A stretch of DNA of 64,000 nt, taken from contig JAMCZU010000032.1 in NCBI GenBank assembly GCA_023485405.1, positions 400 through 64,399 on the forward strand, written 5' to 3'. This document shows positions 5,356-63,224 of the stretch, piece after piece. The notes below the pieces were generated by a model. That model made no database searches. It was not told the origin of the DNA and worked only from the letters and a program-made list of their open reading frames with translations. The stretch comes from Patescibacteria group bacterium (GTDB lineage Bacteria; Patescibacteriota; UBA1384; UBA12157; JAENIV01). A program made the translations under genes and the position numbers. Within the stretch, counting starts at the first letter, position 1. Every line of letters begins with the position of its first letter.

Positions 5356-5604
5356 TTATTTCTCCTCTTCCTCTTTCGCTTCTTGGGTACTTTTACCCAA
5401 GAAATATGTGACTAGCACTGCTAATAAAGTCACGATAATAGCATATATTAATTTTGAAATAAATCCAGAACCCGCCTTAATAAAATGATCAATAAAATCT
5501 TTAATCGCCTCATTCCACGCTAAAGCTGCGACTAAGCCAAAACCAGCCGTCGCTAGTTGCGTCATGGTTTTTAAAAATTCCGACCTGAGATTATTTTTTT
5601 TCAT
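5356..5604 (-). CDS. small membrane protein, function unknown
   Basis: 82 aa, two hydrophobic helices, acidic tail; overlaps the gatB stop (operon-like). Confidence 0.35.
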   Translation of the reverse strand: MKKNNLRSEFLKTMTQLATAGFGLVAALAWNEAIKDFIDHFIKAGSGFISKLIYAIIVTLLAVLVTYFLGKSTQEAKEEEEK

Positions 5605-7025
5605 TTTATCCTTTCATTTAATAATTTGTTAACTATTTGAGGATTAGCTTTACCTTGGGTTTTTTTCATCACCTGCCCCACTAAAAAACCCAACGCTTCT
5701 TTTTTACCCTTTTTAAAATCTTCGACTGATTTTTGATTTTCTTTTGAAACTTCATCAATAATTTTAATAATTTCTGACTCATTACTGACTTGACCCAAAC
5801 CTTTTTCTTTGATAATTTCGCTAGCATTCTTGCCATTTGTAACCATCTCTGCCAAAACATTTTTGGCAATTTTCCCTGAAATTTCACCCTTTTCAATCAG
5901 TTGCAATAACTCAATTAAATTTCCGGATTTTATTTGACCGCCTTCACCTGACAGGTGGGGTTTATGGTTAGGTAGTTCATTAATAACCCAATTAGCAGCA
6001 AGTTTTGGTGAAACTTTTGTTGCTACTTCTTCAAAATATTCGGCCATTTGTTTATCTAAAGTTAAAACAGCGGCATCTTGCGGTGCCAGACCTAAATCAT
6101 CAATATACCTTTTTCTTTTTTCAGCTGGTAATTCCGGCATTTCCTCTTTAATTTTTGCTAAATTAAACTCAACTGTTTCAAATGGCGGGATGTCGGGCTC
6201 GGGAAAGTAACGATAGTCCTGAGCGTATTCTTTGCTTCTTTGAGAATATGTTTCGCCTTTACCGTCATTCCAACCCCGGGTTTCTTTCACTATTTTTTCA
6301 CCCTTTTCAAGCAATTGCCTTTGGCGTTTTTCTTCGTAAGCAAGAGCTCGTTCCACCATCTTGAAACTATTCATATTTTTAATTTCAACCGGTATCCCTA
6401 TTTCCCATTTCTCGTTTCTTATTTCTGCGACGCTAATATTAGCGTCGCACCGTAGGTGTCCACTTTCCATATTAGCGTCAGAAACTGAAAGAAACCTGAG
6501 AATAGTTCGAAGTTCTTGCATAAAAATTTTTGCTTCCTGGGGCGAAGAAATTTCCGGGTTCGTCACAATTTCCATCAAAGGCGTGCCTGCACGGTTTAAA
6601 TCAACTAAAGTGGCATTCTCAGTATGGATCAACTTACCAGCGTCTTCTTCAAGATGAATTCTGGTTAAATTAATTTTTCTTATTTCTTCTTTCTTATTTC
6701 TTATTTCTAAATACCCGCCAGTACAAAATGGCAGATCAAATTGAGAAATTTGATAATTTTTTGGTAAATCAGGATAAAAATAATGCTTACGATCAAACTT
6801 ACTTTTTTCGGCAATTTTAGAGTTTAAAGCCAGACCGGTTTTTAGTGTCCACTCGATTGCTTGACGGTTGGCTACCGGCAATACCCCAGGCAAACCCAAA
6901 CAAACTGGGCAGACCAAAGTATTTGGTTTTGCCTCTTCGGCTTTATTATTGCAACCACAAAACATTTTTGATTGAGTTTTTAATTGGACATGAATTTCCA
7001 AACCAATAATTGTCTTATATTCCAT
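5601..7025 (-). CDS. gatB: Asp/Glu-tRNA amidotransferase subunit B
   Basis: MEYKTIIGLEIHVQLKTQSKMFCGC... and the C-terminal GatB/YqeY domain. Confidence 0.95.
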   Translation of the reverse strand: MEYKTIIGLEIHVQLKTQSKMFCGCNNKAEEAKPNTLVCPVCLGLPGVLPVANRQAIEWTLKTGLALNSKIAEKSKFDRKHYFYPDLPKNYQISQFDLPFCTGGYLEIRNKKEEIRKINLTRIHLEEDAGKLIHTENATLVDLNRAGTPLMEIVTNPEISSPQEAKIFMQELRTILRFLSVSDANMESGHLRCDANISVAEIRNEKWEIGIPVEIKNMNSFKMVERALAYEEKRQRQLLEKGEKIVKETRGWNDGKGETYSQRSKEYAQDYRYFPEPDIPPFETVEFNLAKIKEEMPELPAEKRKRYIDDLGLAPQDAAVLTLDKQMAEYFEEVATKVSPKLAANWVINELPNHKPHLSGEGGQIKSGNLIELLQLIEKGEISGKIAKNVLAEMVTNGKNASEIIKEKGLGQVSNESEIIKIIDEVSKENQKSVEDFKKGKKEALGFLVGQVMKKTQGKANPQIVNKLLNERIK

Positions 7026-9766: not shown

Positions 9767-11818
9767 TTAGTCCTTTCTTATTTTTAAAAACTCTTCTTCG
9801 GAAATTATTTTAACACCAAGTTTTTGGGCTTTTTCATATTTCTCACCCGGTTCATTTCCTGATACCACGTATGAAGTTTGATCACTGACTGATTCCGAAA
9901 TCTCTCCACCTAAATCACGCACTATTTTTTTGGCCTCATCTCGTGACAGCGTCTTTAATCCACCAGTAAAAACAAAAGTTAATCCGACGAATTTCTTATC
10001 ACGAATATGCACAAATTTTATTTTTACTCCAAAATTTAAAAGGCGATTAATAAAATCAAGATTATGTTTATCTTGAAAATAATCAAAAATTGATTTAGCT
10101 ACAATCGGCCCAATATCTTGAATCTCCTGCCAGTCTTCTGGTTTTTTATTTTTTAAGGCATTTGAAATTGATTTGAAATTTGAAATTTGAAATTTGAAAT
10201 TCATGGCGTCAGCCATATCGTACGCCGTTTCTTCCCCTACATTTGGAATGCCTAAAGCATAAATAAAGCGCGGCAATTCAATTTCTTTGTGCGCTTGGAT
10301 TGAATCAATAATATTTTGGGCGGATTTTTCTGCAAATCGTTCTAACGGTTCAATATCACCCTTTTTCAGTTCAAACAAATCAGCCGCATCTTTGACGAGC
10401 CCTATTTCCATAAATTTATTTAAAATTTTTGGACCAAGACCCGTAATATCAAAAGCACCACGTGAAACAAAATGCCTGAGCGCCCGAAGTTTTACCGTAA
10501 AACAGTTTTTATTGAGACAACGATAAGCCGCTTTTCCTTTTTCGCGCACGACTTTACCACCACACTGTGGACATTTTTTGGGAAACTTAAATTCTTTTTC
10601 TTTACCCGTGCGCAGTTCTTTAATCACTTTGGCCACTTCCGGGATCACATCACCAGCCTTGTGAACCACGATTGTATCCCCAATTCGAATATCTTTTTTT
10701 CTAATTTCATCTTCATTATGCAAAGTCGCTCGCGAGACTGTAGACCCAGCCACTATTACCGGTTTTAAAATCGCGACCGGCGTCAAAGTGCCCGTGCGAC
10801 CAACTTGAACAATAATATCTTGAACGGTAGTAGTTGCTTCTTCCGGCGCAAATTTATAAGCAATCATCCCGCGAGGCGCTTTGCCCACCACACCCAATTT
10901 TTCTCTTGTCAAATTGTCATTTATTACCGCTACAATACCATCAATTTGATAAGGCAATTTTTCGCGTGATTTTTCAACTTCAATTTTTACTTTTTCTACT
11001 TCGTTTAAATTCTTGCAATAACGATTTTGAGGCAGAGTTTTAAAACCCAAATCTTTCAAAGTTTCGTGGGATTCCTGATGGGTTTTAACCATTTCCACCC
11101 CATTTACGAAATGGGGTAAAAGGTCCCAAGCGATAAAATCAAGTTTTCGTGATGCGGAAATCTTTGGATTTAATTGGCGAATGGAACCAGCCGCGGCGTT
11201 GCGCGGGTTAGCCAAGAGCGGTAAATTTTGCTTTCGATACTGCGCATTCAAACTTTCAAATACTTTAATCGGCATATAAACCTCTCCCCGAATTTCAATA
11301 ATTTTGAGATTTGAGATTTGAGATTTGAGATTTGCGACTGGCAGTCGCAGTGGTATCGCTTCGATAGTCTTTAAATTTTGAGTCACCTCTTCACCAATTT
11401 TACCATCACCACGGGTAGCACCACGCACTAAAACACCATTTTCATAAATTAATGAAACCGCCAGACCATCCATCTTAAGTTCCGCAAAGTAATCAAACTT
11501 TTCATCTAAGATTTTTTTATTTCGCGTTTCCCAATCCTCAAGTTCTTCAAACGAAAAAGCATCGGTTAAAGAAAGCATTGGCTGCGAATGGGTTACTCTT
11601 TGAAATTTTTTTAAAGGCTCACCACCCACTCGCTGAGTGGGTGAATCGAGTGTTAAAAACTCAGGAAATTTATTTTCTAAATCTTGAAGTTCGTGCTTTA
11701 AAGAATCGTTCACTGCATCAGAAACTAAGGATTTATCTAAAACATGATAAGCGTAGCGATACTTCTCAATCAACTCTTTTAATTTTTCGATTCGATTTTT
11801 TGCCTCAACTTTGGTCAT
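9767..11818 (-). CDS. ligA: NAD-dependent DNA ligase
   Basis: adenylation motif KMDGLAVSL, Zn finger CPQCGGKVVREKGKAAYRCLNKNC, HhH and BRCT C-terminus; contains two in-frame heptamer-repeat tracts. Confidence 0.95.
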   Translation of the reverse strand: MTKVEAKNRIEKLKELIEKYRYAYHVLDKSLVSDAVNDSLKHELQDLENKFPEFLTLDSPTQRVGGEPLKKFQRVTHSQPMLSLTDAFSFEELEDWETRNKKILDEKFDYFAELKMDGLAVSLIYENGVLVRGATRGDGKIGEEVTQNLKTIEAIPLRLPVANLKSQISNLKIIEIRGEVYMPIKVFESLNAQYRKQNLPLLANPRNAAAGSIRQLNPKISASRKLDFIAWDLLPHFVNGVEMVKTHQESHETLKDLGFKTLPQNRYCKNLNEVEKVKIEVEKSREKLPYQIDGIVAVINDNLTREKLGVVGKAPRGMIAYKFAPEEATTTVQDIIVQVGRTGTLTPVAILKPVIVAGSTVSRATLHNEDEIRKKDIRIGDTIVVHKAGDVIPEVAKVIKELRTGKEKEFKFPKKCPQCGGKVVREKGKAAYRCLNKNCFTVKLRALRHFVSRGAFDITGLGPKILNKFMEIGLVKDAADLFELKKGDIEPLERFAEKSAQNIIDSIQAHKEIELPRFIYALGIPNVGEETAYDMADAMNFKFQISNFKSISNALKNKKPEDWQEIQDIGPIVAKSIFDYFQDKHNLDFINRLLNFGVKIKFVHIRDKKFVGLTFVFTGGLKTLSRDEAKKIVRDLGGEISESVSDQTSYVVSGNEPGEKYEKAQKLGVKIISEEEFLKIRKD

Positions 11819-11935
11819 AATATAATTATTGATCTTAAACTTAACCTGTTTACACCCATACCAGGTATGAGGGTAAAGGGTTAGATAATTATTCTCTTTC
11901 TTACCTTATTTTACTCTTTTTTCCCTCCTGTTACA

Positions 11936-11971
11936 ACAAAAAACCTCCGCAGAAACGAAGGTTTTTTTTAA
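11936..11971 (-). terminator. rho-independent terminator (A tract-hairpin-T tract, bidirectional) after the pilin gene
   Basis: aacctccg-cagaaa-cgaaggtt flanked by caaaaaa and tttttttt. Confidence 0.5.
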
Positions 11972-11988
11972 AAATTGATTTTAAACTA

Positions 11989-12546
11989 TTAATTTACGCT
12001 ACATATTTGACCACAGTTCTGTGTGTCGCCGCCCATTAATTGATAATTGCCACAAGCACTGTTTACTGCACCAGTTTCAGGTTGTTCCAGATTGGTACCT
12101 AAAATATAGCCATTACCATCATAGGATTGATATACATAACCTAAATCCGATGTTGGACCACCACCCAAATAAGCAGGGTTACCTGTACTTGTATCTTCTT
12201 TATTCGTAGGATCTACTGGTAGAGAAGCCAGATAATTATTACCCACCAAAACATTATAAAGAGTCCTATAGTCACCATTGGCAGTAGGAGGATATGGATT
12301 AGTACCAGTACCCCAATATGTCTTATCCCATGGAGAAAAGAAACATCCCTTCGGATAACTACTATTTTTATAATAGTAACTATCCAAAGCAGTTTGCATT
12401 GTCCGCATATCGGCTTTGCGTTTAGTGTCACGGGCTCTGACTCGGGCACTGGAAACTCCCACGGTGACCACTGCTGCCAAAATACCAATAATTGCTATCA
12501 CTACCAGAAGCTCAATTAATGTAAAACCTTTACGATTTGAGAACAT
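11989..12546 (-). CDS. type IV pilin (prepilin N-terminal methylation motif)
   Basis: KGFTLIELLVVIAIIGILAAVV class-III signal; Cys-rich C-terminal head. Confidence 0.8.
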   Translation of the reverse strand: MFSNRKGFTLIELLVVIAIIGILAAVVTVGVSSARVRARDTKRKADMRTMQTALDSYYYKNSSYPKGCFFSPWDKTYWGTGTNPYPPTANGDYRTLYNVLVGNNYLASLPVDPTNKEDTSTGNPAYLGGGPTSDLGYVYQSYDGNGYILGTNLEQPETGAVNSACGNYQLMGGDTQNCGQICSVN

Positions 12547-12560
12547 TTTTCTCCTAAAAT

Positions 12561-13172
12561 CTACTCTGACCAGAGATATGCACCGGAAGTATAAAGAGAA
12601 ACTGTTTTACTAGTGGGTGCTGCCGGATCATATATCTCACGAATAGAGGTAGAATTACAAGCATCACTTGGGCCAGTACCACAAATGGTTTCCATTTGAA
12701 GATTGGCTTTTAATTTATATTCCTTACCATCACTCGCATACGCATAGCAACCATGAAAATCTAAATCATTTGTATACTGTTGATTATTAGACGCAGGTAC
12801 CCCTTTTGGATCTTGAGGTAAAACTGAAATAAAATCAGGCGCCAAGTTTGGTATCCAACCGGTACTTCCTGAACTTGTAAGACCCGGTGGATTACTTTGG
12901 TTATAAGTTCGACAGAGTCCGCCCCAAGAAACACCAGGCGATAATAATACTCCGCTAACTTTAACACCAACGTTGCCGCTACTTATTGGGTAGCTACCAT
13001 TTTTATCATTATATTGCTCGAGTGCTCCTTGGAGTGACCTTAAATTTGCAATTCTTTTGGCATCACGAGCAGTTTTACGAGAATTGTTAACATTAACAAT
13101 CACGAGCGACGCTAAAAGACCAATAATAAACATCACTACCAAGAGTTCAATTAGAGTAAAACCCTTTTTCAT
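12561..13172 (-). CDS. type IV pilin (prepilin N-terminal methylation motif)
   Basis: MKKGFTLIELLVVMFIIGLLASL. Confidence 0.8.
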   Translation of the reverse strand: MKKGFTLIELLVVMFIIGLLASLVIVNVNNSRKTARDAKRIANLRSLQGALEQYNDKNGSYPISSGNVGVKVSGVLLSPGVSWGGLCRTYNQSNPPGLTSSGSTGWIPNLAPDFISVLPQDPKGVPASNNQQYTNDLDFHGCYAYASDGKEYKLKANLQMETICGTGPSDACNSTSIREIYDPAAPTSKTVSLYTSGAYLWSE

Positions 13173-51959: not shown

Positions 51960-52010
51960 TTACAACTCTTCGGCTTCTTTGGTGGGACGAGCCAGTGGTT
52001 TCATATCACC
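51960..52010 (-). repeat. punctuation repeat copy M1, encoding mini-ORF MKPLARPTKEAEEL (51960..52004) with its own SD
   Basis: ttacaactcttcggcttctttggtgggacgagccagtggtttcatatcacc; SD aggtga 3-4 nt before the ATG; minus-strand TTGACA-17-TATTAT promoter immediately downstream. Confidence 0.6.
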
Positions 52011-52011
52011 T

Positions 52012-52425
52012 TTATGTAATATTCGAGTTTTGATTCTGCGCCTTGAGATTATTCGGAAATAAATAGCTAATCAACCAAATAAAAATAATATTTGCAACTA
52101 TTAATGTAATAAAGAAATAAGAAAAATAAGTTATAAAGTTAAATTCCCAGGAACGGGAAAAGAAGTTACCAATAATTAAAATCATGATCAAGCTCCCTAA
52201 TTCACTTAATATTAAACTAAACCATCTTGCCCAAACTTTCCTTTTTATTTCACAGATAAAAATTAGTAACATAAAAATAAATATGGAATTTAAAGTGATC
52301 GCTTCAATAAAAAAGGTTATACTGAGACCAATATTATCATAACTTCCTGTTATACTGTTAGCCAATAAAAGTGATAATAAAGTTAAAAAGAATAAAGATA
52401 TCATGAAAATTATAAACTTACTCAT
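52012..52425 (-). CDS. small 4-TM membrane protein, unknown
   Basis: 137 aa, four hydrophobic helices. Confidence 0.4.
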   Translation of the reverse strand: MSKFIIFMISLFFLTLLSLLLANSITGSYDNIGLSITFFIEAITLNSIFIFMLLIFICEIKRKVWARWFSLILSELGSLIMILIIGNFFSRSWEFNFITYFSYFFITLIVANIIFIWLISYLFPNNLKAQNQNSNIT

Positions 52426-52642
52426 AACTTAGAATTCATTTTTTATTTTTATCCTTAAAGTTCTTCGGCTTTTGGGTTTAAATATTGCTCAATAATTTTA
52501 ATATTCTCTAAATCTTTTGGTATGTTCATCATCTTTTTCCAAGCAATCAAATCTTCAAGACGGATAAATTTAATTTTTTCAATTCATCTAATAAGTCTTT
52601 CATTTTGTCCTTTAGAAAAATTTAATCACAATACTAGTAAAA

Positions 52643-52981
52643 CTAACCTATTAAATAATCTATTATTCCAGTTAATATATACCATGTGGAGAAAAACATT
52701 AAAAATGAAGTTATTGTTACAGCCAATATTACAACAAAAGCATCACCAAACGAACGTCCTTCTCTTTTACATAAAATTAATTGAACAATTACCGAGATCA
52801 AACAAGTAAAGAAAATAAAAATTAGACCGTATATAAAAACACCTAAACTTGCCCCAAAGTCGCCATCGCCTATAATATAGTTATAAAATGAAAAACATAT
52901 TCCCACAACAGCTAAAAATGTTAGAACACTGCCGAAAATATATAAAGTTAACCTATTTTGTAACCAAGCTTCTCCATTCAT
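52643..52981 (-). CDS. small 3-TM membrane protein, unknown
   Basis: 112 aa; its start ATG overlaps the stop of mini-ORF M2 (TAATG). Confidence 0.4.
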   Translation of the reverse strand: MNGEAWLQNRLTLYIFGSVLTFLAVVGICFSFYNYIIGDGDFGASLGVFIYGLIFIFFTCLISVIVQLILCKREGRSFGDAFVVILAVTITSFLMFFSTWYILTGIIDYLIG

Positions 52982-53030
52982 TACAACTTCTCTGCCTCTT
53001 TGGACGGTTGAACTAATGGCTTCATATCGC
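52981..53030 (-). repeat. punctuation repeat copy M2, encoding mini-ORF MKPLVQPSKEAEKL (52981..53025)
   Basis: ttacaacttctctgcctctttggacggttgaactaatggcttcatatcgcc; in-frame with hicA, separated from it by a single TAA. Confidence 0.6.
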
Positions 53031-53037
53031 CTATTTT

Positions 53038-53268
53038 TTAGCCTTTAAGTAATCTACGAAATTCTTCAACTGAAAGACCAGCCCTTCTAATTTGCGAATG
53101 AAGTAATCCTGGGGCTAATTCTTTATGATTTGGTATTGAAAGCGGTGGTCGACCGGGACTGTTGGAATATAAAATCATATGGCTACCTTCTTGATGATCT
53201 AATTGATAGCCAATTTTTGAGAAAACTTTTACCGCTTTCTTACCAGAAATATTAGATAATATCCCCAA
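53038..53268 (-). CDS. hicA: HicA-family (YcfA-like) mRNA interferase toxin
   Basis: KVFSKIGYQLDHQEGSHMILYSN...PLSIPNHKELAPGLLHSQIRRAGL. Confidence 0.65.
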   Translation of the reverse strand: MGILSNISGKKAVKVFSKIGYQLDHQEGSHMILYSNSPGRPPLSIPNHKELAPGLLHSQIRRAGLSVEEFRRLLKG

Positions 53269-53517
53269 TTAAACTCCTACAGTTACATAACGAATTTCTT
53301 CAGATGGAACAATTTTGTGATGTTTTTTGATAACTTTTAAATATCCACTGATAGCTTCTTGAATATTTTTTAAAGCTTCTTCTTCGGTTTTCCCCTGACT
53401 CATACAGCCGGGAAGAGTTGGAGCATCAGCAATAAACCCCTCATATTCAGGATCATATTCTAGATAAATTTTGAATTTTTTCATTTTAAATCTCCGCAAT
53501 ATAAATATATCAGTCAA
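53269..53517 (-). CDS. hicB: HicB-family (UPF0150) antitoxin, TTG start
   Basis: YEGFIADAPTLPGCMSQGKTEEEALKNIQEAISGYL. Confidence 0.65.
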   Translation of the reverse strand: MTDIFILRRFKMKKFKIYLEYDPEYEGFIADAPTLPGCMSQGKTEEEALKNIQEAISGYLKVIKKHHKIVPSEEIRYVTVGV

Positions 53518-53560
53518 ACAAGCAATTGTAAATAATCATAATTTTCGATTATTTAATCAT

Positions 53561-53599
53561 TTACAACTCCTCGGCTTCTTTGGCTAGGATGAATAATAT
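53561..53599 (-). repeat. punctuation repeat copy M3 (degenerate; no ATG, peptide remnant ..ILAKEAEEL)
   Basis: ttacaactcctcggcttctttggctaggatgaataatattt. Confidence 0.5.
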
Positions 53600-54217
53600 T
53601 TAATTAAATTTAACAGTTGTTAAGATTTCTTGGAAATAAACAGGATCAGCTAGTCCGTCCTTTATGATAGCTAAAAGATAATGTCGGTCTTTCACAAATA
53701 TCTCAGTGGTCCCTTGTCCAAATCTTTGCTTTTCTGCTTGAGTCTCATTTAAAGCTTCGTGACTATCTATTGTTGTCATCGATGTTTGTCCGTCGGGATT
53801 TTCTTGTTGCCATTGCTTCGCCATATCATCAAACGATAAGTCATTAACATCACGAATATCACTCTCAGGCGAAACGCTACTATCAAATTGGGCATTAAAA
53901 CTAATCGCCTTAGCTTCTTGATCCGATAATATTTCTTTTGGATTATATTTCTCTGGTTGGACTGTTATCAATCCTAAATTACTGTCATATAAATACCAAT
54001 TAGAAGGATATTTAAAAGAATAGCCATATTTCGTATTTGCAAAAGTTTTCCAGTCAGAAGTATCGATATTTGGTGCTAGACTAGTAGAATTTGGAGTATT
54101 TGTTGGCGAAGTCTGAAATTTAGTCGAGCTATTTTTAGACAACCAAAAAATTACTCCTACCGATACTAACAATAGAACCCCCAAAATAATTAATAAAATC
54201 TTTAAAGTTTTGGTCAT
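53600..54217 (-). CDS. signal-anchored secreted protein, unknown
   Basis: N-terminal TM/signal then a polar 180-aa domain; its ATG directly abuts the stop of mini-ORF M4 (TTATAAATG). Confidence 0.4.
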   Translation of the reverse strand: MTKTLKILLIILGVLLLVSVGVIFWLSKNSSTKFQTSPTNTPNSTSLAPNIDTSDWKTFANTKYGYSFKYPSNWYLYDSNLGLITVQPEKYNPKEILSDQEAKAISFNAQFDSSVSPESDIRDVNDLSFDDMAKQWQQENPDGQTSMTTIDSHEALNETQAEKQRFGQGTTEIFVKDRHYLLAIIKDGLADPVYFQEILTTVKFN

Positions 54218-55388: not shown

Positions 55389-57236
55389 TTACAACTCTTC
55401 GGCTTCTTTGGGCGGCTGGGCTAAAGGTTTTAATTCTTCTTTGTTTTTGGGCACTTGGGCCTCAAGATCTTGGATCTCTTTTTGCACTTTAGCCTCGGGC
55501 AAAGAAAAAGTAAAAGTCGAACCTTTGCCTTGACCTTCGCTGTCAGCCCAGACCCGACCATGATGAAGCTCAACTAAGGCTCGGGTAATATAGAGTCCTA
55601 AACCAGTGCCCTGCGATTCGGCGGTGGTGTAATCGCCCACTCGATGAAATTTCTTAAATAATTTCGGCAATTCTTCTTTAGGAATACCAATGCCTTGATC
55701 TTTAACATGAATTAAAATTTGCCGTGGACCTACCAATCGCTTTAGCCGCTCATCCACCGCCGATTTAATCGCCTCTTGATCATCTAATGGCCCGTCCTTA
55801 ATCATTCCTTCAATTTTACTCCAAGTTGCTTGGACTTGCTCCGTTGGCACGGTTTCGATAAGGAGCTGAATTTCGCCCGGCTCTTTGGAATATTTAATCG
55901 AGTTACCAATTAAATTCACCAAAATTTCCTTGATTTTATCGGAATCGCCAAAAGTTTCCCAATGATTGGCATTTTGAAAAACAATTTTTTGCTTTCTTTC
56001 CTCGGCCTTGAATTTTAATTCATCAATGGTTTGTTCAATGACGCCCGTCAGACTGACTTCTTTCTTTTCAACCAAGAGTCTTCCTTCTTCGATGCGAGAG
56101 ACATTTAACATATCTGTGACGAGCCTGGCCAAGCGCTTGGCCGAAGCATAAACCCGATCCATATAATGAATGGCCTTGGGATCATCAATTCTCGCCAATT
56201 TTTCATCCAGCATCATTGAAAGATAACCTTCGATCGCTGAAACAGGTGTTAATAATTCATGGCTCGCCAAGGATACAAATTCGGTTTTCATCTTGTCGAG
56301 TTCCTTGAGATGTTCGTTGGCATGAGCCAATTGTTCAGCTGTTTCTTCTAGTTGCTTGCGAAATTCAATTTCTCGCTTAACAGACTTAATTAGAAGATAG
56401 CCGCCATAACAAACTATTGTTAAAATAATGAAATCAATAAATCTTTCTTCGATAGTTTCCGAAAAAATAAGTTGAGCTAAAAGCGCTAGCACGACAACCC
56501 CTAAAGCTGTTTCGGTTAAAATAACTTTAATATCAAAAAGCTCGTACTTAATAATTGCATATGCCGTAAAACTTACTAAAATAACTGATGAAACATAGCC
56601 AAAGTTACTTAAAAACTCAAATGTTGTTCCAAAAAATGCAGGTAATATAACATCTGTAACAATTATTACTGAACTAGAAATTATTGCTCCAGCAAATAAC
56701 CACTTTATTTTTTTCTTGGATTCTTCGTTAGATTTTTTATAATTGATTAAAATTAACGAGATAAAAATAATTAGATTAATAAGAATACCTATTAAAAATA
56801 CTGGTAACAATTGTCCGTACTCAAAGGTAAGTATATTATTTTGAAAATAAATTCTTCCAATAAAACTTGGACTCAAGGCAATTATCGAAATAAATATTGA
56901 GATTAATAAACAAAAAACATCAACAAATTTCATAATTTTTATATTTTCTGAGATTTTTTGAGGAAAATAAATAATAAAATGTACTAACAAATAAAGTACA
57001 AGAGCACCTAAGGTATACGTTAGTCTTGCCCAAAGTAAATTTAAATTATATGTTTGGTTAATTAATGTTAAAAGATTTACAGCTTGCCAAACCGCAATAG
57101 AAAAAGCTAGATATGAAAAGTTAAGAGAATTATTTTTCTTCCATCCTTCATTAGTAACTAGAGTTATAAAACCTAAAAATAAGGTTAAACAAATTATTAT
57201 AATTAGAAAAGAAAGTAATGTATTACTCAAATCCAT
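55389..57236 (-). CDS. multi-TM sensor histidine kinase; last 14 codons (55389-55432) are punctuation-repeat copy M5
   Basis: ~8 TM helices, HisKA H-box LASHELLTPVSAIEGY, HATPase_c G-boxes; C-terminal KPLAQPPKEAEEL identical to mini-ORF M4. Confidence 0.85.
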   Translation of the reverse strand: MDLSNTLLSFLIIIICLTLFLGFITLVTNEGWKKNNSLNFSYLAFSIAVWQAVNLLTLINQTYNLNLLWARLTYTLGALVLYLLVHFIIYFPQKISENIKIMKFVDVFCLLISIFISIIALSPSFIGRIYFQNNILTFEYGQLLPVFLIGILINLIIFISLILINYKKSNEESKKKIKWLFAGAIISSSVIIVTDVILPAFFGTTFEFLSNFGYVSSVILVSFTAYAIIKYELFDIKVILTETALGVVVLALLAQLIFSETIEERFIDFIILTIVCYGGYLLIKSVKREIEFRKQLEETAEQLAHANEHLKELDKMKTEFVSLASHELLTPVSAIEGYLSMMLDEKLARIDDPKAIHYMDRVYASAKRLARLVTDMLNVSRIEEGRLLVEKKEVSLTGVIEQTIDELKFKAEERKQKIVFQNANHWETFGDSDKIKEILVNLIGNSIKYSKEPGEIQLLIETVPTEQVQATWSKIEGMIKDGPLDDQEAIKSAVDERLKRLVGPRQILIHVKDQGIGIPKEELPKLFKKFHRVGDYTTAESQGTGLGLYITRALVELHHGRVWADSEGQGKGSTFTFSLPEAKVQKEIQDLEAQVPKNKEELKPLAQPPKEAEEL

Positions 57237-57398
57237 ATAATTCTCCTGTTAACTTTATTATACCATCATAATTACAATTTTATTACTATCAAGTAGTCTT
57301 TGTTGCAAAAACATTTTTATAACAGGAAATGAAAAGTCTTGACAGGAAACGATATTATATGTTCTACTATATTTAAAAGGCAAAAGGAGGTGGTCAAA

Positions 57399-57518
57399 TT
57401 GGATAGCAACACCTGCCCTTCGTGTCAATCAAGAATAAGCTCACACTGTAAAGTATGCCCATATTGTGGGCATATAATCAAAAAAGAAGACGATCACGAG
57501 TACAAACCACCAGACTGA
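57399..57518 (+). CDS. 39-aa Cys-rich zinc-ribbon-like peptide (TTG start, strong SD); alternative precursor candidate
   Basis: SD aaggagg 8 nt upstream; LDSNTCPSCQSRISSHCKVCPYCGHIIKKEDDHEYKPPD with CPxC…CPYCG knuckles. Confidence 0.4.
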   Translation: MDSNTCPSCQSRISSHCKVCPYCGHIIKKEDDHEYKPPD

Positions 57519-57596
57519 AGTTTTTCACTATCATAATTGCATTTTAACTCTCAACTATGAGTTGGGAGTTATTTTTAACATTTTATATGCGAGAAC

Positions 57597-57625
57597 TTGA
57601 CAACTAATTGAGACGAGTCCATAAT
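57597..57625 (+). promoter_or_regulatory. sigma70-like promoter TTGACA-17-CATAAT driving the short peptide gene and the rSAM gene
   Basis: ttgaca 57597-57602; cataat 57620-57625; two small hairpins in the ~90-nt leader. Confidence 0.4.
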
Positions 57626-57716
57626 ACAAACTAAAGCTAATGGATTTTGGCAATCCGTTAGTAGTTCGATCCTCTGTATCGAGGATAGCACTTTCACAAA
57701 GAAAGGAGTGACAAAC

Positions 57717-57830
57717 ATGAAACGAAAGAAAAAACTTGTCTCTGCTGCGTTGACCAAGAAAGATTGCACTCTCCGACTCACTCAGGCCTTGAATTCAGGC
57801 AGTCAAGGCCCAGACACCAGTAGAACATAG
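57717..57830 (+). CDS. 37-aa peptide MKRKKKLVSAALTKKDCTLRLTQALNSGSQGPDTSRT, candidate RiPP precursor
   Basis: SD aaaggagtg 7 nt before the ATG; absent from the track because <60 aa; immediately upstream of the PqqD-rSAM-SPASM gene. Confidence 0.4.
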   Translation: MKRKKKLVSAALTKKDCTLRLTQALNSGSQGPDTSRT

Positions 57831-57852
57831 ACAGGCAACAGAAAACGGTACC

Positions 57853-57882
57853 GATCAAGGCCTTGATCTTTTGGTCAAGGCC
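57853..57882 (+). promoter_or_regulatory. 16-bp perfect palindrome gatcaaggccttgatc plus tttt and a further tcaaggcc half-site, between the peptide gene and the rSAM gene (attenuator/operator candidate)
   Basis: four tcaaggcc/ggccttga half-sites within 57783-57882. Confidence 0.4.
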
Positions 57883-57911
57883 TAATACTTTTACAGGAGG
57901 GAAGCAGGAAA

Positions 57912-59300
57912 ATGGATGGTTATATAGCTTTGGAGGATAATTTCACATTACGCAGTTCGGAATCTGAGAAAACATTGCTAGATCTACAAACTGGCGAAAA
58001 GTATGTTATTGCCAACGATCAATTCGAGTTTCTTGCAGCATGCGATGGTTCTAAAAAGCTAGCAGAAATAAGTTCAGAATATAACAAAGCTTCACGCAAG
58101 GTGATAGCAAACCTTATCAGTAATCTGAATACTATCGAAGCTATTAAATTCTCGGATTCACCACACCAAAGAATCCTGCCTATTCATACCGTAGACGAGC
58201 CGAGATTGATGGGAGTTCAACTCGAAGCAACTAGTCGATGTAATATGAAATGCGTACATTGTCATCAAGGCGATTTTTATAGTCATTTTCAAGACTTAAG
58301 TCTTGCAGAAATTGAACGTTTGGTTGATGAAATGCAAGACCTACAAGTCGAGAATGTTAGCCTTAGTGGTGGAGAACCTCTTTTTAGCAATCTTACATTT
58401 GATATTGCGAATCTCATCGAGCAAAAGGACATTCGTATTTCATCCATTTTTACAAATGGATGGCTTATCGATGATGATGTTATTAAAAAAATTTTATCAT
58501 GGCGCAGTAGGGTTACGGTTTTTGTTAGTTTAGATGCTATTACCACTGAAGGAATGCGATTCCGCGGTTTTAAGCCAAATCAAGGTGCAAGAATATTAAA
58601 GATAATTCTAAATAATATTTTTGCACTCAGAAAAGCTGCTATTCCAGTCATTGTTAACACAGTAATGACGCCATACAATATTTTCCACCTTGATGAAATG
58701 TATGAATTTATGAGAAAAATTGATGTTACTAGCTGGAGGCTTGGTTTTCCTAAACGCGCAGGGTCTTTTAAGCAAAACTACCAACAATATGAGCTTAAAT
58801 GGGAAGATATGTCGTCGGCAGCACTTCGTTTGATAAAAACACATCTCCGATTAGAAAGGCCTTTCGATCTGCAAGTAGAATTTCTCTATCGGGAAAGATT
58901 ATTCAAAAACTTCCAACTACTTGTTGATGAAGACTTTATTTGCAACTACGAAGAAAGACGTGAGAGTTGCTGCATAAAATCAAACGGCAACGTTGTTTCT
59001 TGTTCTTACTGTAATGATATGCCAGTAGGTAATATCCGCAAGCAGTCATTGAGGACAATTTGGTATTCACCTCAAATGCAGTCAATCAAAAATTTACAAA
59101 TCAGAGACATTGGAGAATGTTGCGATTGTGAGTTAAGAATATTGTGTGCGACTGGCTGCAGAGCCAACGCTTATTTCCTTAATCATGAATTTCTAAATAG
59201 CAAAGATGAACAAGCATGCAGATCGGTAAAGTTTTTCATTGAAAGTCTATTGCCAGTCTTACAGGCTGAAGGCATTTTGCCCAAAAACTGGCCCCGGTAA
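57912..59300 (+). CDS. radical SAM/SPASM peptide-modifying enzyme with N-terminal PqqD-like RRE domain
   Basis: residues ~20-90 PqqD-like (LLDLQTGEKYVIANDQFEFLAACDGSKKLAEI); CNMKCVHC CX3CX2C; C-terminal SPASM Cys pattern CSYCND…CCDCELRILCATGC. Confidence 0.85.
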   Translation: MDGYIALEDNFTLRSSESEKTLLDLQTGEKYVIANDQFEFLAACDGSKKLAEISSEYNKASRKVIANLISNLNTIEAIKFSDSPHQRILPIHTVDEPRLMGVQLEATSRCNMKCVHCHQGDFYSHFQDLSLAEIERLVDEMQDLQVENVSLSGGEPLFSNLTFDIANLIEQKDIRISSIFTNGWLIDDDVIKKILSWRSRVTVFVSLDAITTEGMRFRGFKPNQGARILKIILNNIFALRKAAIPVIVNTVMTPYNIFHLDEMYEFMRKIDVTSWRLGFPKRAGSFKQNYQQYELKWEDMSSAALRLIKTHLRLERPFDLQVEFLYRERLFKNFQLLVDEDFICNYEERRESCCIKSNGNVVSCSYCNDMPVGNIRKQSLRTIWYSPQMQSIKNLQIRDIGECCDCELRILCATGCRANAYFLNHEFLNSKDEQACRSVKFFIESLLPVLQAEGILPKNWPR

Positions 59301-59357
59301 ATCCTTCCGGGGCATTTTATTCAATAGTTAACCACAACATGACATTTATTCATAGCT

Positions 59358-60068
59358 ATGAAAAATAATATATATTCACCTTATCAAAAATTAGCTTCTT
59401 TTTATGATAAAACATATGATGGAAAATTTTATTTTAAATATGCTAATTTTATTAGTAAACTAGCAAAAAAAAATAAAATTAAAAATCCTATAGTTTTAGA
59501 TTTAGCATGTGGCACAGGCAGTTTGATCAAAGAATTGAATAAAAAGCTTAAAAATGTCGAAGGTGCTGACATTTCTACTGAAATGTTGCAAGTAGCTAAA
59601 TTGAAAAATCCGAAAAACAAATTTTATAGTCAAAGTTTTCAAGATTTACACTTGAATAAAACTTACGACATTATTACTTGTACATTTGATTCGATAAATT
59701 ATCTATTAAAAAAAGAAGATTTATATCGAACCATCAAAAACATTTCTCGACATCTTAAAAATAATGGCTTATTTATTTTTGACTTCAACACAACTAATAA
59801 AAAAATTGATTCAAAATTTATAAATAACAATATTATATTTAATAATTCGATAAACAAAAATTATTGGGATGCCAAAATTGAAATAATCGAAGATGGTAAA
59901 GCCAATATAGAAAATCACAGAGAAAGACTTTATACTTTAAAAGAAATAGAAAATGTCCTAGAAAAATATGGAATCAAAATTATCGAACTGTACTCCAATT
60001 TTAATGAACAAGTGAACGAAAAAAGTAAATCTAATAGATTATTTGTTATTGCTAAAAAAATTAAATAG
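59358..60068 (+). CDS. class I SAM-dependent methyltransferase
   Basis: motif I VLDLACGTGSL, acidic motif II; very AT-rich (~27% GC). Confidence 0.8.
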   Translation: MKNNIYSPYQKLASFYDKTYDGKFYFKYANFISKLAKKNKIKNPIVLDLACGTGSLIKELNKKLKNVEGADISTEMLQVAKLKNPKNKFYSQSFQDLHLNKTYDIITCTFDSINYLLKKEDLYRTIKNISRHLKNNGLFIFDFNTTNKKIDSKFINNNIIFNNSINKNYWDAKIEIIEDGKANIENHRERLYTLKEIENVLEKYGIKIIELYSNFNEQVNEKSKSNRLFVIAKKIK

Positions 60069-60203
60069 AAATAAAATTATTTCAAGGTTTAAATTGTTTT
60101 ATTTTTTCAAAACCAATCTTGGTTTTGTGCGATTGAGATTATCGCAAAAAGGTCCTTCACCATTTTCAAATATTTCAATTGGGCCTTACCGATCAAAAAA
60201 AAT

Positions 60204-60225
60204 AGAGCCCTTTTAAGGGGGCTCT
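60204..60225. terminator. bidirectional hairpin terminator agagccc-ttttaagg-gggctct between the convergent methyltransferase and AOS genes
   Basis: A tract before, T-rich loop; convergent gene ends on both sides. Confidence 0.45.
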
Positions 60226-60242
60226 AACATAATTGGGCCGCT

Positions 60243-61496
60243 TTAGGCCATTTTACTCAACAAATTCTGAGGGCTATGTTGCAAATACTTGCTAAAAAGC
60301 CCTTTTATCACACCGAGAAGATGATCTATATCCTCCAGATCATGTAAGGCTGTGGGGCAAAACCGCAAAACAGCTTCGCCTTTGGGAACTGCCGGATATT
60401 CAAAGGGTGGACAAAATATCCCCTTTTCCTCAAGATCATCAGCAAACTGGCGAGCGAGCAATTCATCACCAATCAGAATCGGAACGACCTGCGTAGAGCT
60501 ACTCAAGGTGTCGAATCCGATTTGTTTTAAGCCGAAACGAAGCTTATCTGCCAGAGCTAAGACCTGTTGCCTTCTCCACGGTTCTGATTGAGCTATCTCT
60601 AGCGCCTTAATGGCAGCGCCGCATTCACCCGGTGACAAAGGCATACTATGGATTTGTGGACGACTATGTCTAATATATTCGATGAACCATTTTTCACCAA
60701 CGATAAATCCACCCATAGACCCCAACGCTTTGGAGATGACCCCCATTTTAACATCCACTCGGTTTCCCACACCAGCAAGTTCACATGTTCCTCTACCTTT
60801 TTTGCCTAGAATACCAGTAGCATGAGCATCGTCAACATACACGACGGCTCCGAATACTTCAGCAATAACGCAAATATCCTCAAGGGGAGCGATACCTCCA
60901 CTGGTTGAGAATATTCCGTCGGTTACAATAAGATTCAGGTCTGTCTTATGAAGATTTAACTTATGCTCAAGGTCCTGCATATCCCCAGATCGGTAATTTA
61001 TTACCTTGACGTTCGCACCCCTGGTTAAATAGGCCGCATCTTTTGCACTGGAATGTGATAATTCGTCAATAAACACTGCTCTCGACGCACGAGTATTTTC
61101 GCCAGGACAAAGATAAGAAAGTGGCGAAGCGATTACTGCAGGTATGGTGCCATGATTTGCAGCAGAGCCCGAAGTAAAAACAACAGAATCCTCTTCCCCC
61201 ATAAATCCTGCTATTTTCCTTTCGAGTTCTTTATTGATGTCCATCTCGATTACCATACGAGACGGCAAAGCTCCACAACCATATTTACGAGCCGCTTTTG
61301 CCTCTGCCTCAATAACTCTTTCGTCACTCGCAAGACCCAAATAATCAAGTGACCCAAACTGCAAAAGTTCTTTGCCGCCCAATACAATATATGGACGAAC
61401 TGCCTGGCCTTTCGCAATCCTTCTTTCAGGATAGTAATCAGACATCTCTTTTATATTCAGCTGGGCAGCTATCACATTTTTCAATCTTTCACTCAT
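60243..61496 (-). CDS. alpha-oxoamine synthase family PLP enzyme (BioF/KBL/SPT-like)
   Basis: PLP-Lys context VISKALGSMGGF, His/Asp residues of fold type I; GC ~47%. Confidence 0.8.
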   Translation of the reverse strand: MSERLKNVIAAQLNIKEMSDYYPERRIAKGQAVRPYIVLGGKELLQFGSLDYLGLASDERVIEAEAKAARKYGCGALPSRMVIEMDINKELERKIAGFMGEEDSVVFTSGSAANHGTIPAVIASPLSYLCPGENTRASRAVFIDELSHSSAKDAAYLTRGANVKVINYRSGDMQDLEHKLNLHKTDLNLIVTDGIFSTSGGIAPLEDICVIAEVFGAVVYVDDAHATGILGKKGRGTCELAGVGNRVDVKMGVISKALGSMGGFIVGEKWFIEYIRHSRPQIHSMPLSPGECGAAIKALEIAQSEPWRRQQVLALADKLRFGLKQIGFDTLSSSTQVVPILIGDELLARQFADDLEEKGIFCPPFEYPAVPKGEAVLRFCPTALHDLEDIDHLLGVIKGLFSKYLQHSPQNLLSKMA

Positions 61497-61509: not shown

Positions 61510-61773
61510 CTATCTTCCATATTTAAGATAACCAGTCAAAGCTAAAATAGCAGCAGGCAGACTTATAGCACCAAGCATAAACACCGGCCACTCACGGATG
61601 GTAATTCCATAATTAAGCCACGCAATTTCATCTAACAAAAGAGCTACAAGAAGGGCCATTGTAAAATCCTTGGCACTTTTTGTCTTAAACATCTTGACGA
61701 CTTGCGCGTACATTCCATAAACAAGTACGATACTTGTTAAGAAAGCAAAAACGCGACTTCCGTCAGTATACAC
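61510..61773 (-). CDS. SemiSWEET/PQ-loop-like 3-TM transporter (tentative)
   Basis: 87 aa, three TM helices, W..YG motif; 14-nt gap from the upstream AOS gene. Confidence 0.4.
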   Translation of the reverse strand: MYTDGSRVFAFLTSIVLVYGMYAQVVKMFKTKSAKDFTMALLVALLLDEIAWLNYGITIREWPVFMLGAISLPAAILALTGYLKYGR

Positions 61774-62198: not shown

Positions 62199-63224
62199 TT
62201 AAAAAAGTAGTTTTTGTGCGTTTTTTGAAAAAATCCGCGCCTTAATTTCCTTGCTATCGCCGAATACATCTTCGACAGCACGTCTTAAAGCAATTACCAT
62301 TTTCAGTCCAGAATACACGAAAACCAAACTGTGATTGATATGATAGTATAATTGCTCATCAGGATCCGCCCAGTGGTAATTAAAATCGGTCGCATAACGC
62401 TGGCCCAACACAGGGTGTATAACAGGCTGAACTCTTAAAAGGTTAAATGGTTGGTCTGTTGCAAAAAGCATCCTCTCTGACCCGAAGGTCTCTAGAGCTG
62501 CACGAAATATCTTGACATCATCCACTGCCGACGTATCGACGTAGACATTTTCATATCTTGACAAGGTTTCATAAGCCGCGAGAAGGTCGTCACTATAGAT
62601 TCTGTCCGTACCCATATGAGCTAAAATCAAACACAGTTGGGGAAATCTTTGAACGACTGATTCTACATCATTTATCTGGCTACTCAAGAAAGATGGCAAG
62701 TGCATTACTAACGGCAAACCCGATTTATTCAGTTCATTGAGCATTAAATCGGGATAAGATCTTCCAAGTGTCTTGTCACCAGGTATCGGGTAAAGTTTCA
62801 CTCCGTGAAAATGGAAATGCTCCATATCCTTTTGATATAACTTCAAATCATCGGCTGTTCCTGTCCAAAAAGGAATGAAACTCTGATCATGTTCTGAAAG
62901 CTCGGCCAAGTAGTTATTGGCACTGGCAAAATCAAATCCAGGAAATGGAAAGGCAAAAGCAACCTGACGCATCACTTTATCAGAAAAAAACATTTCTCTT
63001 AACCGATAGTGAATTTCAGCATCAGCATAGAGAAAAGTACTGCCCATGTAACGATCCCAATTTTCAGAAAGCGGTCGGATACACTTCGCAGGCATTACGT
63101 GAGTATGGAAATCAAGTATTTCACTTGGAATCCAATCGAGAACCTCTTGCAAAAGGGCAATTTCTTCATTGTTGATTTTGAAACCATATTGCAGATAGGA
63201 ATCAGTTCGGTTTTTCAGGTACAT
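62199..63224 (-). CDS. amidohydrolase-2 (TIM-barrel metal-dependent hydrolase) family protein
   Basis: LDFHTHVMP metal-binding start, HMGTD, DQPF motifs; GC ~45%. Confidence 0.65.
   Translation of the reverse strand: MYLKNRTDSYLQYGFKINNEEIALLQEVLDWIPSEILDFHTHVMPAKCIRPLSENWDRYMGSTFLYADAEIHYRLREMFFSDKVMRQVAFAFPFPGFDFASANNYLAELSEHDQSFIPFWTGTADDLKLYQKDMEHFHFHGVKLYPIPGDKTLGRSYPDLMLNELNKSGLPLVMHLPSFLSSQINDVESVVQRFPQLCLILAHMGTDRIYSDDLLAAYETLSRYENVYVDTSAVDDVKIFRAALETFGSERMLFATDQPFNLLRVQPVIHPVLGQRYATDFNYHWADPDEQLYYHINHSLVFVYSGLKMVIALRRAVEDVFGDSKEIKARIFSKNAQKLLF

Follow-up and report, generated by a model that had tools for sequence, protein, structure and literature searches.

A candidate undescribed family of radical SAM-modified peptides encoded by a compact three-gene cassette in Patescibacteria and DPANN archaea

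INTRODUCTION

The streptide system (SuiA/SuiB, StrB) is a close described counterpart of the locus reported here: a short gene for the precursor sits immediately upstream of the gene for an enzyme that combines an N-terminal recognition element (RRE) for ribosomally synthesized peptides that are post-translationally modified (RiPPs), a radical S-adenosylmethionine (SAM) barrel and a SPASM domain with two auxiliary clusters, and the chemistry is a Lys-Trp link. Here, we analyze a 64,000-nucleotide stretch of DNA from a Patescibacteria group bacterium (contig JAMCZU010000032.1, positions 400 to 64,399 of the forward strand; hereafter the window, with positions counted from its first letter), which contains a cassette of similar plan encoding a 37-aa peptide, a radical SAM/SPASM maturase and a methyltransferase. 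SuiB is the best structural match to the window maturase (template modeling (TM) score 0.65-0.69), yet the two share 14-16% sequence identity. The cassette further differs from streptide in that the peptide's conserved core, RLTQALN, has no aromatic residue, the putative leader is polycationic, a methyltransferase stands in place of a transporter or protease, and the hosts belong to the candidate phyla radiation (CPR) of bacteria and to the DPANN archaea.

The genomes of CPR bacteria and DPANN archaea are minimal, and their secondary metabolism is considered very limited. A cassette shared by both would be one of the few candidate specialized products there. Its core lacks the Cys sulfur or aromatic ring that serves as partner in characterized SPASM cross-linkers, so that its chemistry likely extends the known range, and its small size (37, 462 and 236 aa) makes it directly testable by heterologous co-expression. 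Full-text literature searches on the motif, and on radical SAM RiPPs in CPR, Patescibacteria and Parcubacteria, returned nothing on the family. A first-pass annotation had read the region as a compact RiPP-like locus, possibly of an undescribed class, in an organism with a reduced genome; we find this central claim upheld, and the interpretation as a whole supported in part.

RESULTS

Layout of the cassette

The + strand between 57250 and 60300 holds two transcription units, a zinc-ribbon open reading frame (ORF) and the peptide-maturase-methyltransferase cassette. The features of the cassette are:

57597..57625, + strand: sigma-70-type promoter-like site, TTGACA-17-CATAAT, 11/12 consensus matches
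57626..57716, + strand: 5' untranslated leader, with a hairpin at about 57636-57662 and a GGAG ribosome-binding site at 57705-57708
57717..57830, + strand: predicted precursor peptide gene, 37 aa, MKRKKKLVSAALTKKDCTLRLTQALNSGSQGPDTSRT; GGAG 8 nt upstream; homologues at 27 loci
57774..57794, + strand: RLTQALN codons (R20-L-T-Q-A-L-N26), the proposed core; synonymous codon variation
57858..57883, + strand: stem-loop between the peptide and enzyme genes, 11 bp with a 4-nt loop and a weak T-tract
57912..59300, + strand: RRE-like / radical SAM / SPASM maturase, 462 aa (PF04055, PF13186)
57912..58196, + strand: RRE-like winged-helix N-terminal domain, residues 1-95 (AlphaFold2 fold; CteB/StsB alignment)
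58239..58262, + strand: C110-x3-C114-x2-C117, predicted [4Fe-4S] cluster ligands of the radical SAM domain, invariant in 23 sequences
58941..59219, + strand: SPASM region with C344, C354, C364, C403, C406, C412, C416 and C436, invariant (PF13186)
59358..60068, + strand: class I SAM-dependent methyltransferase, 236 aa (Methyltransf_25; TylM1/CypM-like fold)
59496-59519, + strand: methyltransferase SAM motif, L47-D-L-A-C-G-T-G54; LDxACGTG is invariant in the family

All features listed by the first-pass annotation are present in the sequence where it had placed them. It had also called the two small genes upstream of the maturase unannotated, with Shine-Dalgarno sequences, and this agrees with what we find: GGAGG precedes the 39-aa zinc-ribbon ORF and GGAG the 37-aa peptide gene, each 8 nt upstream, and both short ORFs are absent from a collection of 15 billion proteins and therefore unannotated in the source record, where the maturase is named 'radical SAM protein [Patescibacteria group bacterium]'.

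A short peptide with an invariant motif accompanies the maturase

A word-indexed search found about 40 maturase homologues at 37-60% identity, followed by a drop to 1e-20. A one-genome-per-species scan supplied 15 family loci and the JGI metagenomes about 22, and the closest relative, locus L096, was reached through the methyltransferase. At 27 distinct loci, from Patescibacteria, Nanoarchaeota, Aenigmatarchaeota (CPR and DPANN) and a few other metagenome-assembled genomes (MAGs), an ORF of 26-63 aa lies 60-110 nt upstream of the maturase gene, and it is at these 27 loci that the co-conserved short precursor and modifying enzyme by which RiPP clusters are recognized are found together. Co-occurrence had been suggested as a check on both short peptides of the window, with a divided outcome: the 37-aa peptide is found in essentially every maturase locus with upstream sequence, and the zinc-ribbon peptide in none of 37.

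The window peptide consists of a basic N-terminal part with a net charge of +6, a weak L-x-x-S/A-x-L motif and RLTQALN. Across the family, a Lys/Arg-rich N-terminal part (net charge +5 to +11 in all members, a GC-rich genome included) leads to a weak h-x-x-S-x-L-basic motif, and the invariant RLTQALN follows exactly eight residues on, with a spacing so fixed that the two motifs align gap-free; A-S-x-P-G-T/S/E usually trails the heptapeptide. In L096, the peptide closes with ...YRLTQALNSGTQGPGK, like the unusual tail of the window peptide. The codons of the motif are far from uniform, as 24 distinct DNA versions use 6 codons for R, 6 for L, 4 for T, 2 for Q, 4 for A, 6 for the second L and 2 for N. 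Selection therefore acts on the peptide, not on the RNA.

A profile search with the peptide alignment found 32 clusters among 5.8 billion proteins, all named 'hypothetical' and none with a Pfam domain, and 24 peptides searched against Pfam and NCBIfam gave no match even at E<=10. More than 50 peptides contain no conserved Cys. The alignment can now serve as a search model for a family of unrecognized short genes that current pipelines miss.

The motif has variants, QLKVxIHPVG and NLKATLN among them. A minority core, Q/S-L-K-V/I-A/S/G-I-H-P-V-G-x-D, occurs in L014 (Aenigmatarchaeota), L015, L031 and P0088, which carry the most divergent enzymes of the family (36-42% identity). Beyond these, an exhaustive profile search, in which 899 representatives reached E<=1e-30, uncovered a continuum of more distant full-length maturase relatives; at the loci sampled, basic peptides end as follows:

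L098: NLKTGLNDYE
L100: TLKTSMNDNN
L102: NLKATMNNDNA
L107: VNLKATLNNQGGI
L109: GNLKGMPNFA

The wider clade thus shows the pattern L-[T/K]-x-small-[L/I/M]-[N/H] near the peptide C-terminus. In L102, L107, L014 and L031, the enzyme is followed by a methyltransferase of another subtype. Sister lineages include YcaO-linked loci (L104, L106) and one that pairs a repeat precursor with a B12-dependent radical SAM gene (L108).

Neighboring genes were also compared across loci. Besides the methyltransferase, no consistent partner emerged among proteases, transporters, second radical SAM genes or aminoacyl-tRNA synthetases. A link to anti-phage defence was rejected, as PADLOC gave only generic viperin-core and methyltransferase similarity. 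Carriage by phages or plasmids was rejected as well: the best tblastn matches were unrelated radical SAM genes, 21-26% identical, and no phage or plasmid record held a close relative of the cassette.

Several loci have surroundings worth recording in their own right. The peptide-maturase pair of L098 (1474-3845) lies between an 85-aa duplicate of the leucyl-tRNA synthetase N-terminus and an apparently intact leuS, an arrangement suggestive of insertion with target duplication. Genes for aminoacyl-tRNA synthetases flank L009 (LeuRS), L100 (MetRS) and L107 (AlaRS) as well. On the Nealsonbacteria contig of L002, a second radical SAM/SPASM gene of 348 aa (4478-5524) sits just downstream of the cassette and adjoins a 76-codon stop-to-stop frame (about 5498-5725, the same in L021) ending in SLCSYCDCQCDCGYCPCSVCHYE; together they may be a separate Cys-rich RiPP locus. 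The contig of L096 encodes a second radical SAM protein (472 aa, its C-terminus rich in CxxC) at a distance of 4 kb downstream from the cassette; the gene is followed by one for another class I methyltransferase, and the pair (10080-12711) is preceded by a 2',5'-RNA-ligase-family gene. Finally, L005, L009 and L015 come from MAGs labeled Gammaproteobacteria, Bdellovibrionales and Nitrospirota. Some of these host labels may reflect mis-binning; the L005 enzyme closely resembles that of L006, a Kuenenbacteria MAG.

The maturase joins an RRE-like domain to a complete radical SAM/SPASM enzyme

The window maturase belongs to the radical SAM superfamily (Pfam PF04055, 75.1 bits against a cutoff of 29.5) and to its SPASM subfamily (PF13186, 36.8 bits against 21.5). 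C110/C114/C117, a GGEP motif and eight cysteines of the SPASM region are kept without exception in 23 homologues, in keeping with the CX3CX2C core and C-terminal Cys cluster proposed earlier. The eight cysteines (C344, C354-x4-G-x4-C364, C403-x2-C406-x5-C412-x3-C416 and C436) are, judging by their pattern, enough for two auxiliary clusters.

Structurally, an RRE is defined as a three-stranded sheet followed by three helices, a winged helix, N-terminal to the catalytic domain. An AlphaFold2 model of the maturase computed from the family alignment (mean predicted local distance difference test (pLDDT) 91.6) places strands at residues 11-16, 20-24 and 30-33 and helices at 35-43, 50-54 and 59-74, and a hidden Markov model alignment matches this N-terminal domain to CteB (16-219) and StsB (14-287). 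The PqqD model PF05402 does not match the window protein, and scores 13.4 bits against a cutoff of 23.4 in one of five homologous N-terminal domains. The domain as modeled is RRE-like by fold, not a member of the PqqD family by sequence; of the PqqD-like RRE originally described, the RRE-like fold and the alignment to CteB, StsB and SuiB stand, and the PqqD assignment does not.

Foldseek ranks SuiB (E 1e-19, 458 aligned columns), CteB, SkfB and TigE as the best Protein Data Bank matches to the maturase model, with full-length alignments to SuiB and CteB, and places sulfatase maturase and PqqE structures after them. No curated radical SAM family in NCBIfam reaches its cutoff with the window maturase. 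The best, AhbD, scores 102.3 against a cutoff of 500 and covers residues 104-278 only, and NirJ is also at the top. The anaerobic sulfatase-maturating family, against which the first-pass annotation had set its peptide maturase, gives 64.6 bits against 349 (TIGR03942), and the enzyme is not of that kind.

A methyltransferase is the fixed partner of the maturase

The SAM-dependent methyltransferase noted after the maturase is indeed there, and its pairing with the enzyme is conserved. At about 26 of the 27 loci with enough sequence, the gene next downstream of the enzyme gene encodes a homologue, and in L013 one lies upstream. Identity to the window protein is 33-49%, or 68% in L096, and rises and falls with enzyme identity; the close homologues group in a clade of their own, about 24 proteins in size. 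The window protein matches Methyltransf_25 (64.3 bits) and has the SAM motif and the TylM1/CypM-type class I fold with its C-terminal sheet. Its AlphaFold2 model (pLDDT 91.3) superposes at Foldseek TM scores of 0.75-0.83 on 1y8c (the best match), TylM1, CalS10, CypM and CgnL, and also on the N-methyltransferases DesVI and CcbJ, and phmmer relates it to TylM1 (E 7e-16) and CypM (E 2e-6). The C-methyltransferases PsmD and SeMT share the fold, and the methylated atom is therefore not readable from it.

As a separate observation on composition, the AT content of the methyltransferase gene far exceeds that of the maturase gene in the window and in seven of seven further loci (L096, L017, L016, L019, L003, L005, L004). 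Its GC content is 0.228 against 0.374 for the maturase gene in the window (0.18 against 0.32 at third codon positions). In L096, the values are 0.236 and 0.432, and in the GC-rich L004 they are 0.485 and 0.61. Divergence of the two genes has run in parallel.

Transcription signals around the peptide gene

The peptide gene had been credited with a TTGACA-17-CATAAT promoter of its own, and among the 22 promoter-like sites that a scan of 3.1 kb (57200-60300) gave, the one at 57597-57625 is the best; it lies just past the terminator of the zinc-ribbon gene. The leader that follows is 85-90 nt long and is not conserved in L096. A riboswitch or other known RNA in this leader was rejected, as Rfam returned no match at the gathering threshold or even at E<=1.

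Downstream of the peptide gene, the 90 nt past the stop codon contain a strong GC-rich stem-loop at all 27 loci, and at 24 its z-score is <= -2.2. Its sequence is not conserved between loci, and T-runs follow it in many. In a common RiPP operon layout, a partial terminator or stabilizing hairpin yields more precursor than enzyme transcript. By analogy, the hairpin at 57858-57883 is probably a partial terminator or 3' stabilizer that sets the peptide:enzyme transcript ratio. What had been called palindromic control sites are real palindromes, recast here as two intrinsic-terminator-like hairpins, one of which is kept in all loci.

Proposed route to the product

We propose that the three genes form a cassette for a ribosomally made, post-translationally modified peptide of an undescribed family, and we assign this reading a probability of roughly 0.8. 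One promoter would drive the highly basic 37-aa precursor, and read-through past the terminator-like hairpin would express the maturase and methyltransferase. The variable, basic N-terminal half would act as a leader held by the enzyme's RRE-like domain, and the invariant C-proximal RLTQALN would enter the radical SAM active site as the core. Only 9 of the 102 family-conserved enzyme positions fall in the RRE domain, and the five positions whose residue changes from the LTQALN to the LKVxIH group (F180L, G278A, L325F, V362T and Y366L) all lie in the barrel or the SPASM domain. We take RLTQALN as the core because a variable leader goes with a variable RRE, and an invariant motif with an invariant active site.

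In the active site, the 5'-deoxyadenosyl radical would take a hydrogen from a core residue, most likely at or next to the invariant Asn/His (Asn26 in the window). This position is favored because Asn/His is the only polar position kept in all core variants, and because Asn and Gln carbons are known hydrogen-abstraction sites of NxxcB, QmpB and TqqB (PMC11851443). Neither a Cys nor an aromatic residue is conserved that could supply the partner atom, and Thr occurs in most, not all, variants. A full SPASM domain is typical of substrate-radical oxidation, by cross-linking or dehydrogenation, and not of redox-neutral epimerization. The complete SPASM domain, with its two predicted auxiliary clusters, would therefore favor a net two-electron oxidation (cross-link or desaturation) over epimerization. 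The methyltransferase would then most likely methylate a nitrogen, adding 14 or 28 Da, a preference that leans on its modeled fold.

More tentatively, the cassette could represent a new peptide class, in which a new radical SAM oxidative bond at the aliphatic Asn/His motif, made with no sulfur or aromatic partner, is followed by N-methylation; it would have been exchanged between ultra-small CPR bacteria and DPANN archaea, and its polycationic product may play a part in their episymbiotic way of life, such as host contact or nucleic-acid binding. We hold this to be possible, at somewhat below an even chance. That the chemistry itself is new we consider a comparably open bet.

Weighing the proposal against its alternatives

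Several observations weigh against the proposed RiPP cassette. All homologues come from metagenomes or MAGs. At locus L022, no peptide is encoded in the 240 nt upstream of an intact enzyme (L027 and L028 are further exceptions, with an N-terminally truncated enzyme), the distant relatives L098 and L100 have no methyltransferase, and the Pfam PqqD model fails to recognize the enzyme's N-terminal domain. No protease, exporter or immunity gene is conserved beside the cassette. The RRE domain is also not acidic despite the cationic leader: its mean net charge is about 0, which led us to reject an electrostatic match between basic leader and acidic RRE, and leader recognition therefore does not explain the basic region. 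With the leader charge unmatched and neither a protease nor an exporter accompanying the cassette, the product may retain its cationic part or be a small-metabolite precursor.

The latter option, developed into a full alternative, would make the peptide the precursor of a small cofactor or metabolite like PQQ or mycofactocin, with a core that is cross-linked, methylated and excised by housekeeping proteases. The precursor is tiny, its core lies near the C-terminus and is absolutely conserved across two domains of life, and a minimal cassette lacking an exporter, immunity gene or dedicated protease, carried by reduced-genome hosts, fits such a role. A cofactor would, however, hardly be expected to have so rare and patchy a spread (about 40 enzyme clusters and 32 peptide clusters in 5.8 billion proteins). 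Nor is there a conserved redox-enzyme partner in the vicinity, aromatic or acidic residues of the kind used in PQQ and mycofactocin are missing from the core, and the enzyme models of both pathways score far below their cutoffs. We regard a cofactor precursor as unlikely.

The former option would make the peptide a small polycationic protein that binds nucleic acid, the ribosome or a membrane, stays intact and is modified at its C-terminal motif. This would account for the N-terminal charge of +5 to +11, unmatched by an acidic RRE, and for the lack of a conserved protease or exporter, and it draws on the position of L096 beside rpsM-rpsK-rpsD-rpoA and infA and of L009, L098, L100 and L107 beside aminoacyl-tRNA synthetases. 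The synthetase neighbors, however, number 5 of 111 against about 2.5 expected and are not significantly enriched, the peptides have no similarity to ribosomal or other families at E<=10, and the family is patchy, not universal in these phyla. An intact cationic protein is thus also an improbable account of the cassette.

A regulatory alternative holds that the small ORF and hairpin are an attenuator for an enzyme with another substrate, of the sulfatase-maturase-like or heme-biosynthesis-like SPASM kind. Copies of the 9-mer AGGCCTTGA and of its complement TCAAGGCCT number five in the window between 57784 and 57883, with the QALN codons and both arms of the terminator among their sites. From within the QALN codons, one copy can base-pair with either arm region of the terminator that follows, so that alternative pairings in the 1-2-3-4 style are allowed (duplex z -2.5), and AhbD and NirJ have the top NCBIfam scores. 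At 25 other scored loci, however, the pairing z-scores range from -1.9 to +1.5, around 0 and not beyond codon-shuffled controls. Leader-peptide attenuation through the QALN codons was rejected as a family mechanism, since the pairing is real in the window and seen at none of 26 other loci. What is conserved across phyla and domains is the peptide sequence, not the RNA; the enzyme's N-terminal recognition domain is missing in AhbD and sulfatase maturases, and the respective scores are 102 against 500 and 65 against 349. An attenuator is very unlikely.

Genes flanking the cassette

The remaining features of the region are:

57399-57518, + strand: zinc-ribbon ORF, 39 aa, TTG start, GGAGG 8 nt upstream
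57545-57571, + strand: hairpin after the zinc-ribbon ORF, 12 bp plus a T-run, intrinsic-terminator-like
60243-61496, convergent to the cassette: BioF/Kbl-like PLP (pyridoxal phosphate) enzyme gene, with its own terminator at 60226-60203, which closes the region

The zinc-ribbon peptide described by the first-pass annotation exists as such, with 39 aa (MDSNTCPSCQSRISSHCKVCPYCGHIIKKEDDHEYKPPD), a TTG start and four Cys in two CPxC knuckles (CPSC...CPYCG); its inclusion in the RiPP system as a Cys-rich peptide is not borne out. Among Pfam models, it reaches UPF0547, with 30.0 bits where the cutoff is 29, and zinc_ribbon. A small CxxC...CxxC ORF was found at none of 37 family loci, nor in L096, where a divergent M16 peptidase gene lies upstream in place of the zinc ribbon. 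The gene is an independent small gene and a bystander to the cassette, because a terminator of its own precedes the cassette promoter and no related locus contains the gene. That it encodes the maturase's substrate, or a second one, as its same-strand position next to the cassette, its four Cys and a 146-aa UPF0547-domain protein about 850 nt upstream of the distant maturase relative L105 might suggest, can be dismissed for practical purposes, given the missing counterparts, the 12-bp terminator with T-run between ORF and cassette promoter, and its place in ordinary zinc-ribbon Pfam families. The L105 protein (716-1156; its maturase relative scores 215 bits), although of the same Pfam family as the window ORF, is a single case and probably a coincidence.

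Elsewhere in the window, a SemiSWEET-type (MtN3_slv) single-repeat sugar transporter of 87 aa (61510-61773, - strand) adjoins the BioF/Kbl-like gene and an Amidohydro_2 protein (62199-63224). A HicA toxin (76 aa, PF07927, 50 bits) and a HicB-like antitoxin (82 aa, PF15919, 33 bits) are encoded at 53038-53517 on the - strand, in an AT-rich stretch (52000-53600, GC 0.24-0.35).

DISCUSSION

Comparison with known systems

The architecture of the window maturase, RRE-radical SAM-SPASM, is shared by CteB, SkfB, StsB, PapB and the SCIFF enzymes, and CteB and StsB align with its N-terminal domain. Sactipeptides, ranthipeptides and SCIFF peptides need a Cys thiol donor, whereas the cassette peptides have no conserved Cys, and the scores of the corresponding NCBIfam models are low (StsB 88 against a cutoff of 625, PapB 56 against 340). 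Generic genome-mining rules would, we expect, probably label the locus sactipeptide- or ranthipeptide-type. Cyclophanes of the streptide, triceptide and darobactin types have an aromatic residue (Trp, Tyr, Phe or His) in their motif, and RLTQALN and its tail have none; His occurs only in the core of the minor variant group, and DynA and WgkB score 78 against 450 and 86 against 650. Because the conserved core has neither Cys nor aromatic residue, chemistry of the sactipeptide, ranthipeptide, streptide, PQQ and mycofactocin types is excluded for RLTQALN on the strength of its residues. The earlier statement that the peptide is unlike SCIFF, PQQ, mycofactocin, streptide and darobactin precursors agrees with this, as the core features that define those precursors are missing.

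A likeness in core residues only is to the NxxcB/QmpB/TqqB-type systems, which abstract at Gln or Asn: the cassette core has Thr-Gln and Asn, and no Cys partner. In rotapeptides (TqqB-type), an ether joins Thr/Ser-O to Gln-C-alpha within a TQQ-type motif, and the main group of the cassette has T-Q. The variant cores LKVAIH, LKATLN and LKTGLN lack this Gln, and a Thr-Gln ether is therefore not the family-wide reaction.

The mycofactocin (MftA/B/C) and PQQ (PqqA/D/E) systems resemble the cassette in their tiny precursors with reactive residues near the C-terminus, very conserved core, RRE-dependent SPASM enzyme and cluster lacking an exporter. They differ in that their RRE is separate, whereas that of the cassette is fused, and in their partner genes. 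The cassette peptides have no C-terminal Gly-Val-Tyr, and the maturase scores 87.3 against 265 with the MftC model TIGR03962; likewise, there is no Glu-x3-Tyr, and the PqqE model TIGR02109 gives 53.2 against 381. Anaerobic sulfatase-maturating enzymes act on a protein substrate and have no N-terminal recognition domain, in contrast to the extra 95-residue domain of the window maturase, and the equivalog scores of the heme-pathway SPASM enzymes AhbD and NirJ lie beyond its reach.

The window methyltransferase shares its fold with CypM (cypemycin), CgnL (crocagin), TylM1, DesVI and CalS10 at TM scores of 0.75-0.82 and 15-20% identity, and its closest structure, 1y8c, is a protein with no assigned function. 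Radical SAM/SPASM RiPPs are, as a kind, well known; the precursor family, its Cys- and aromatic-free core, the fixed methyltransferase and the distribution over CPR and DPANN are what is undescribed here.

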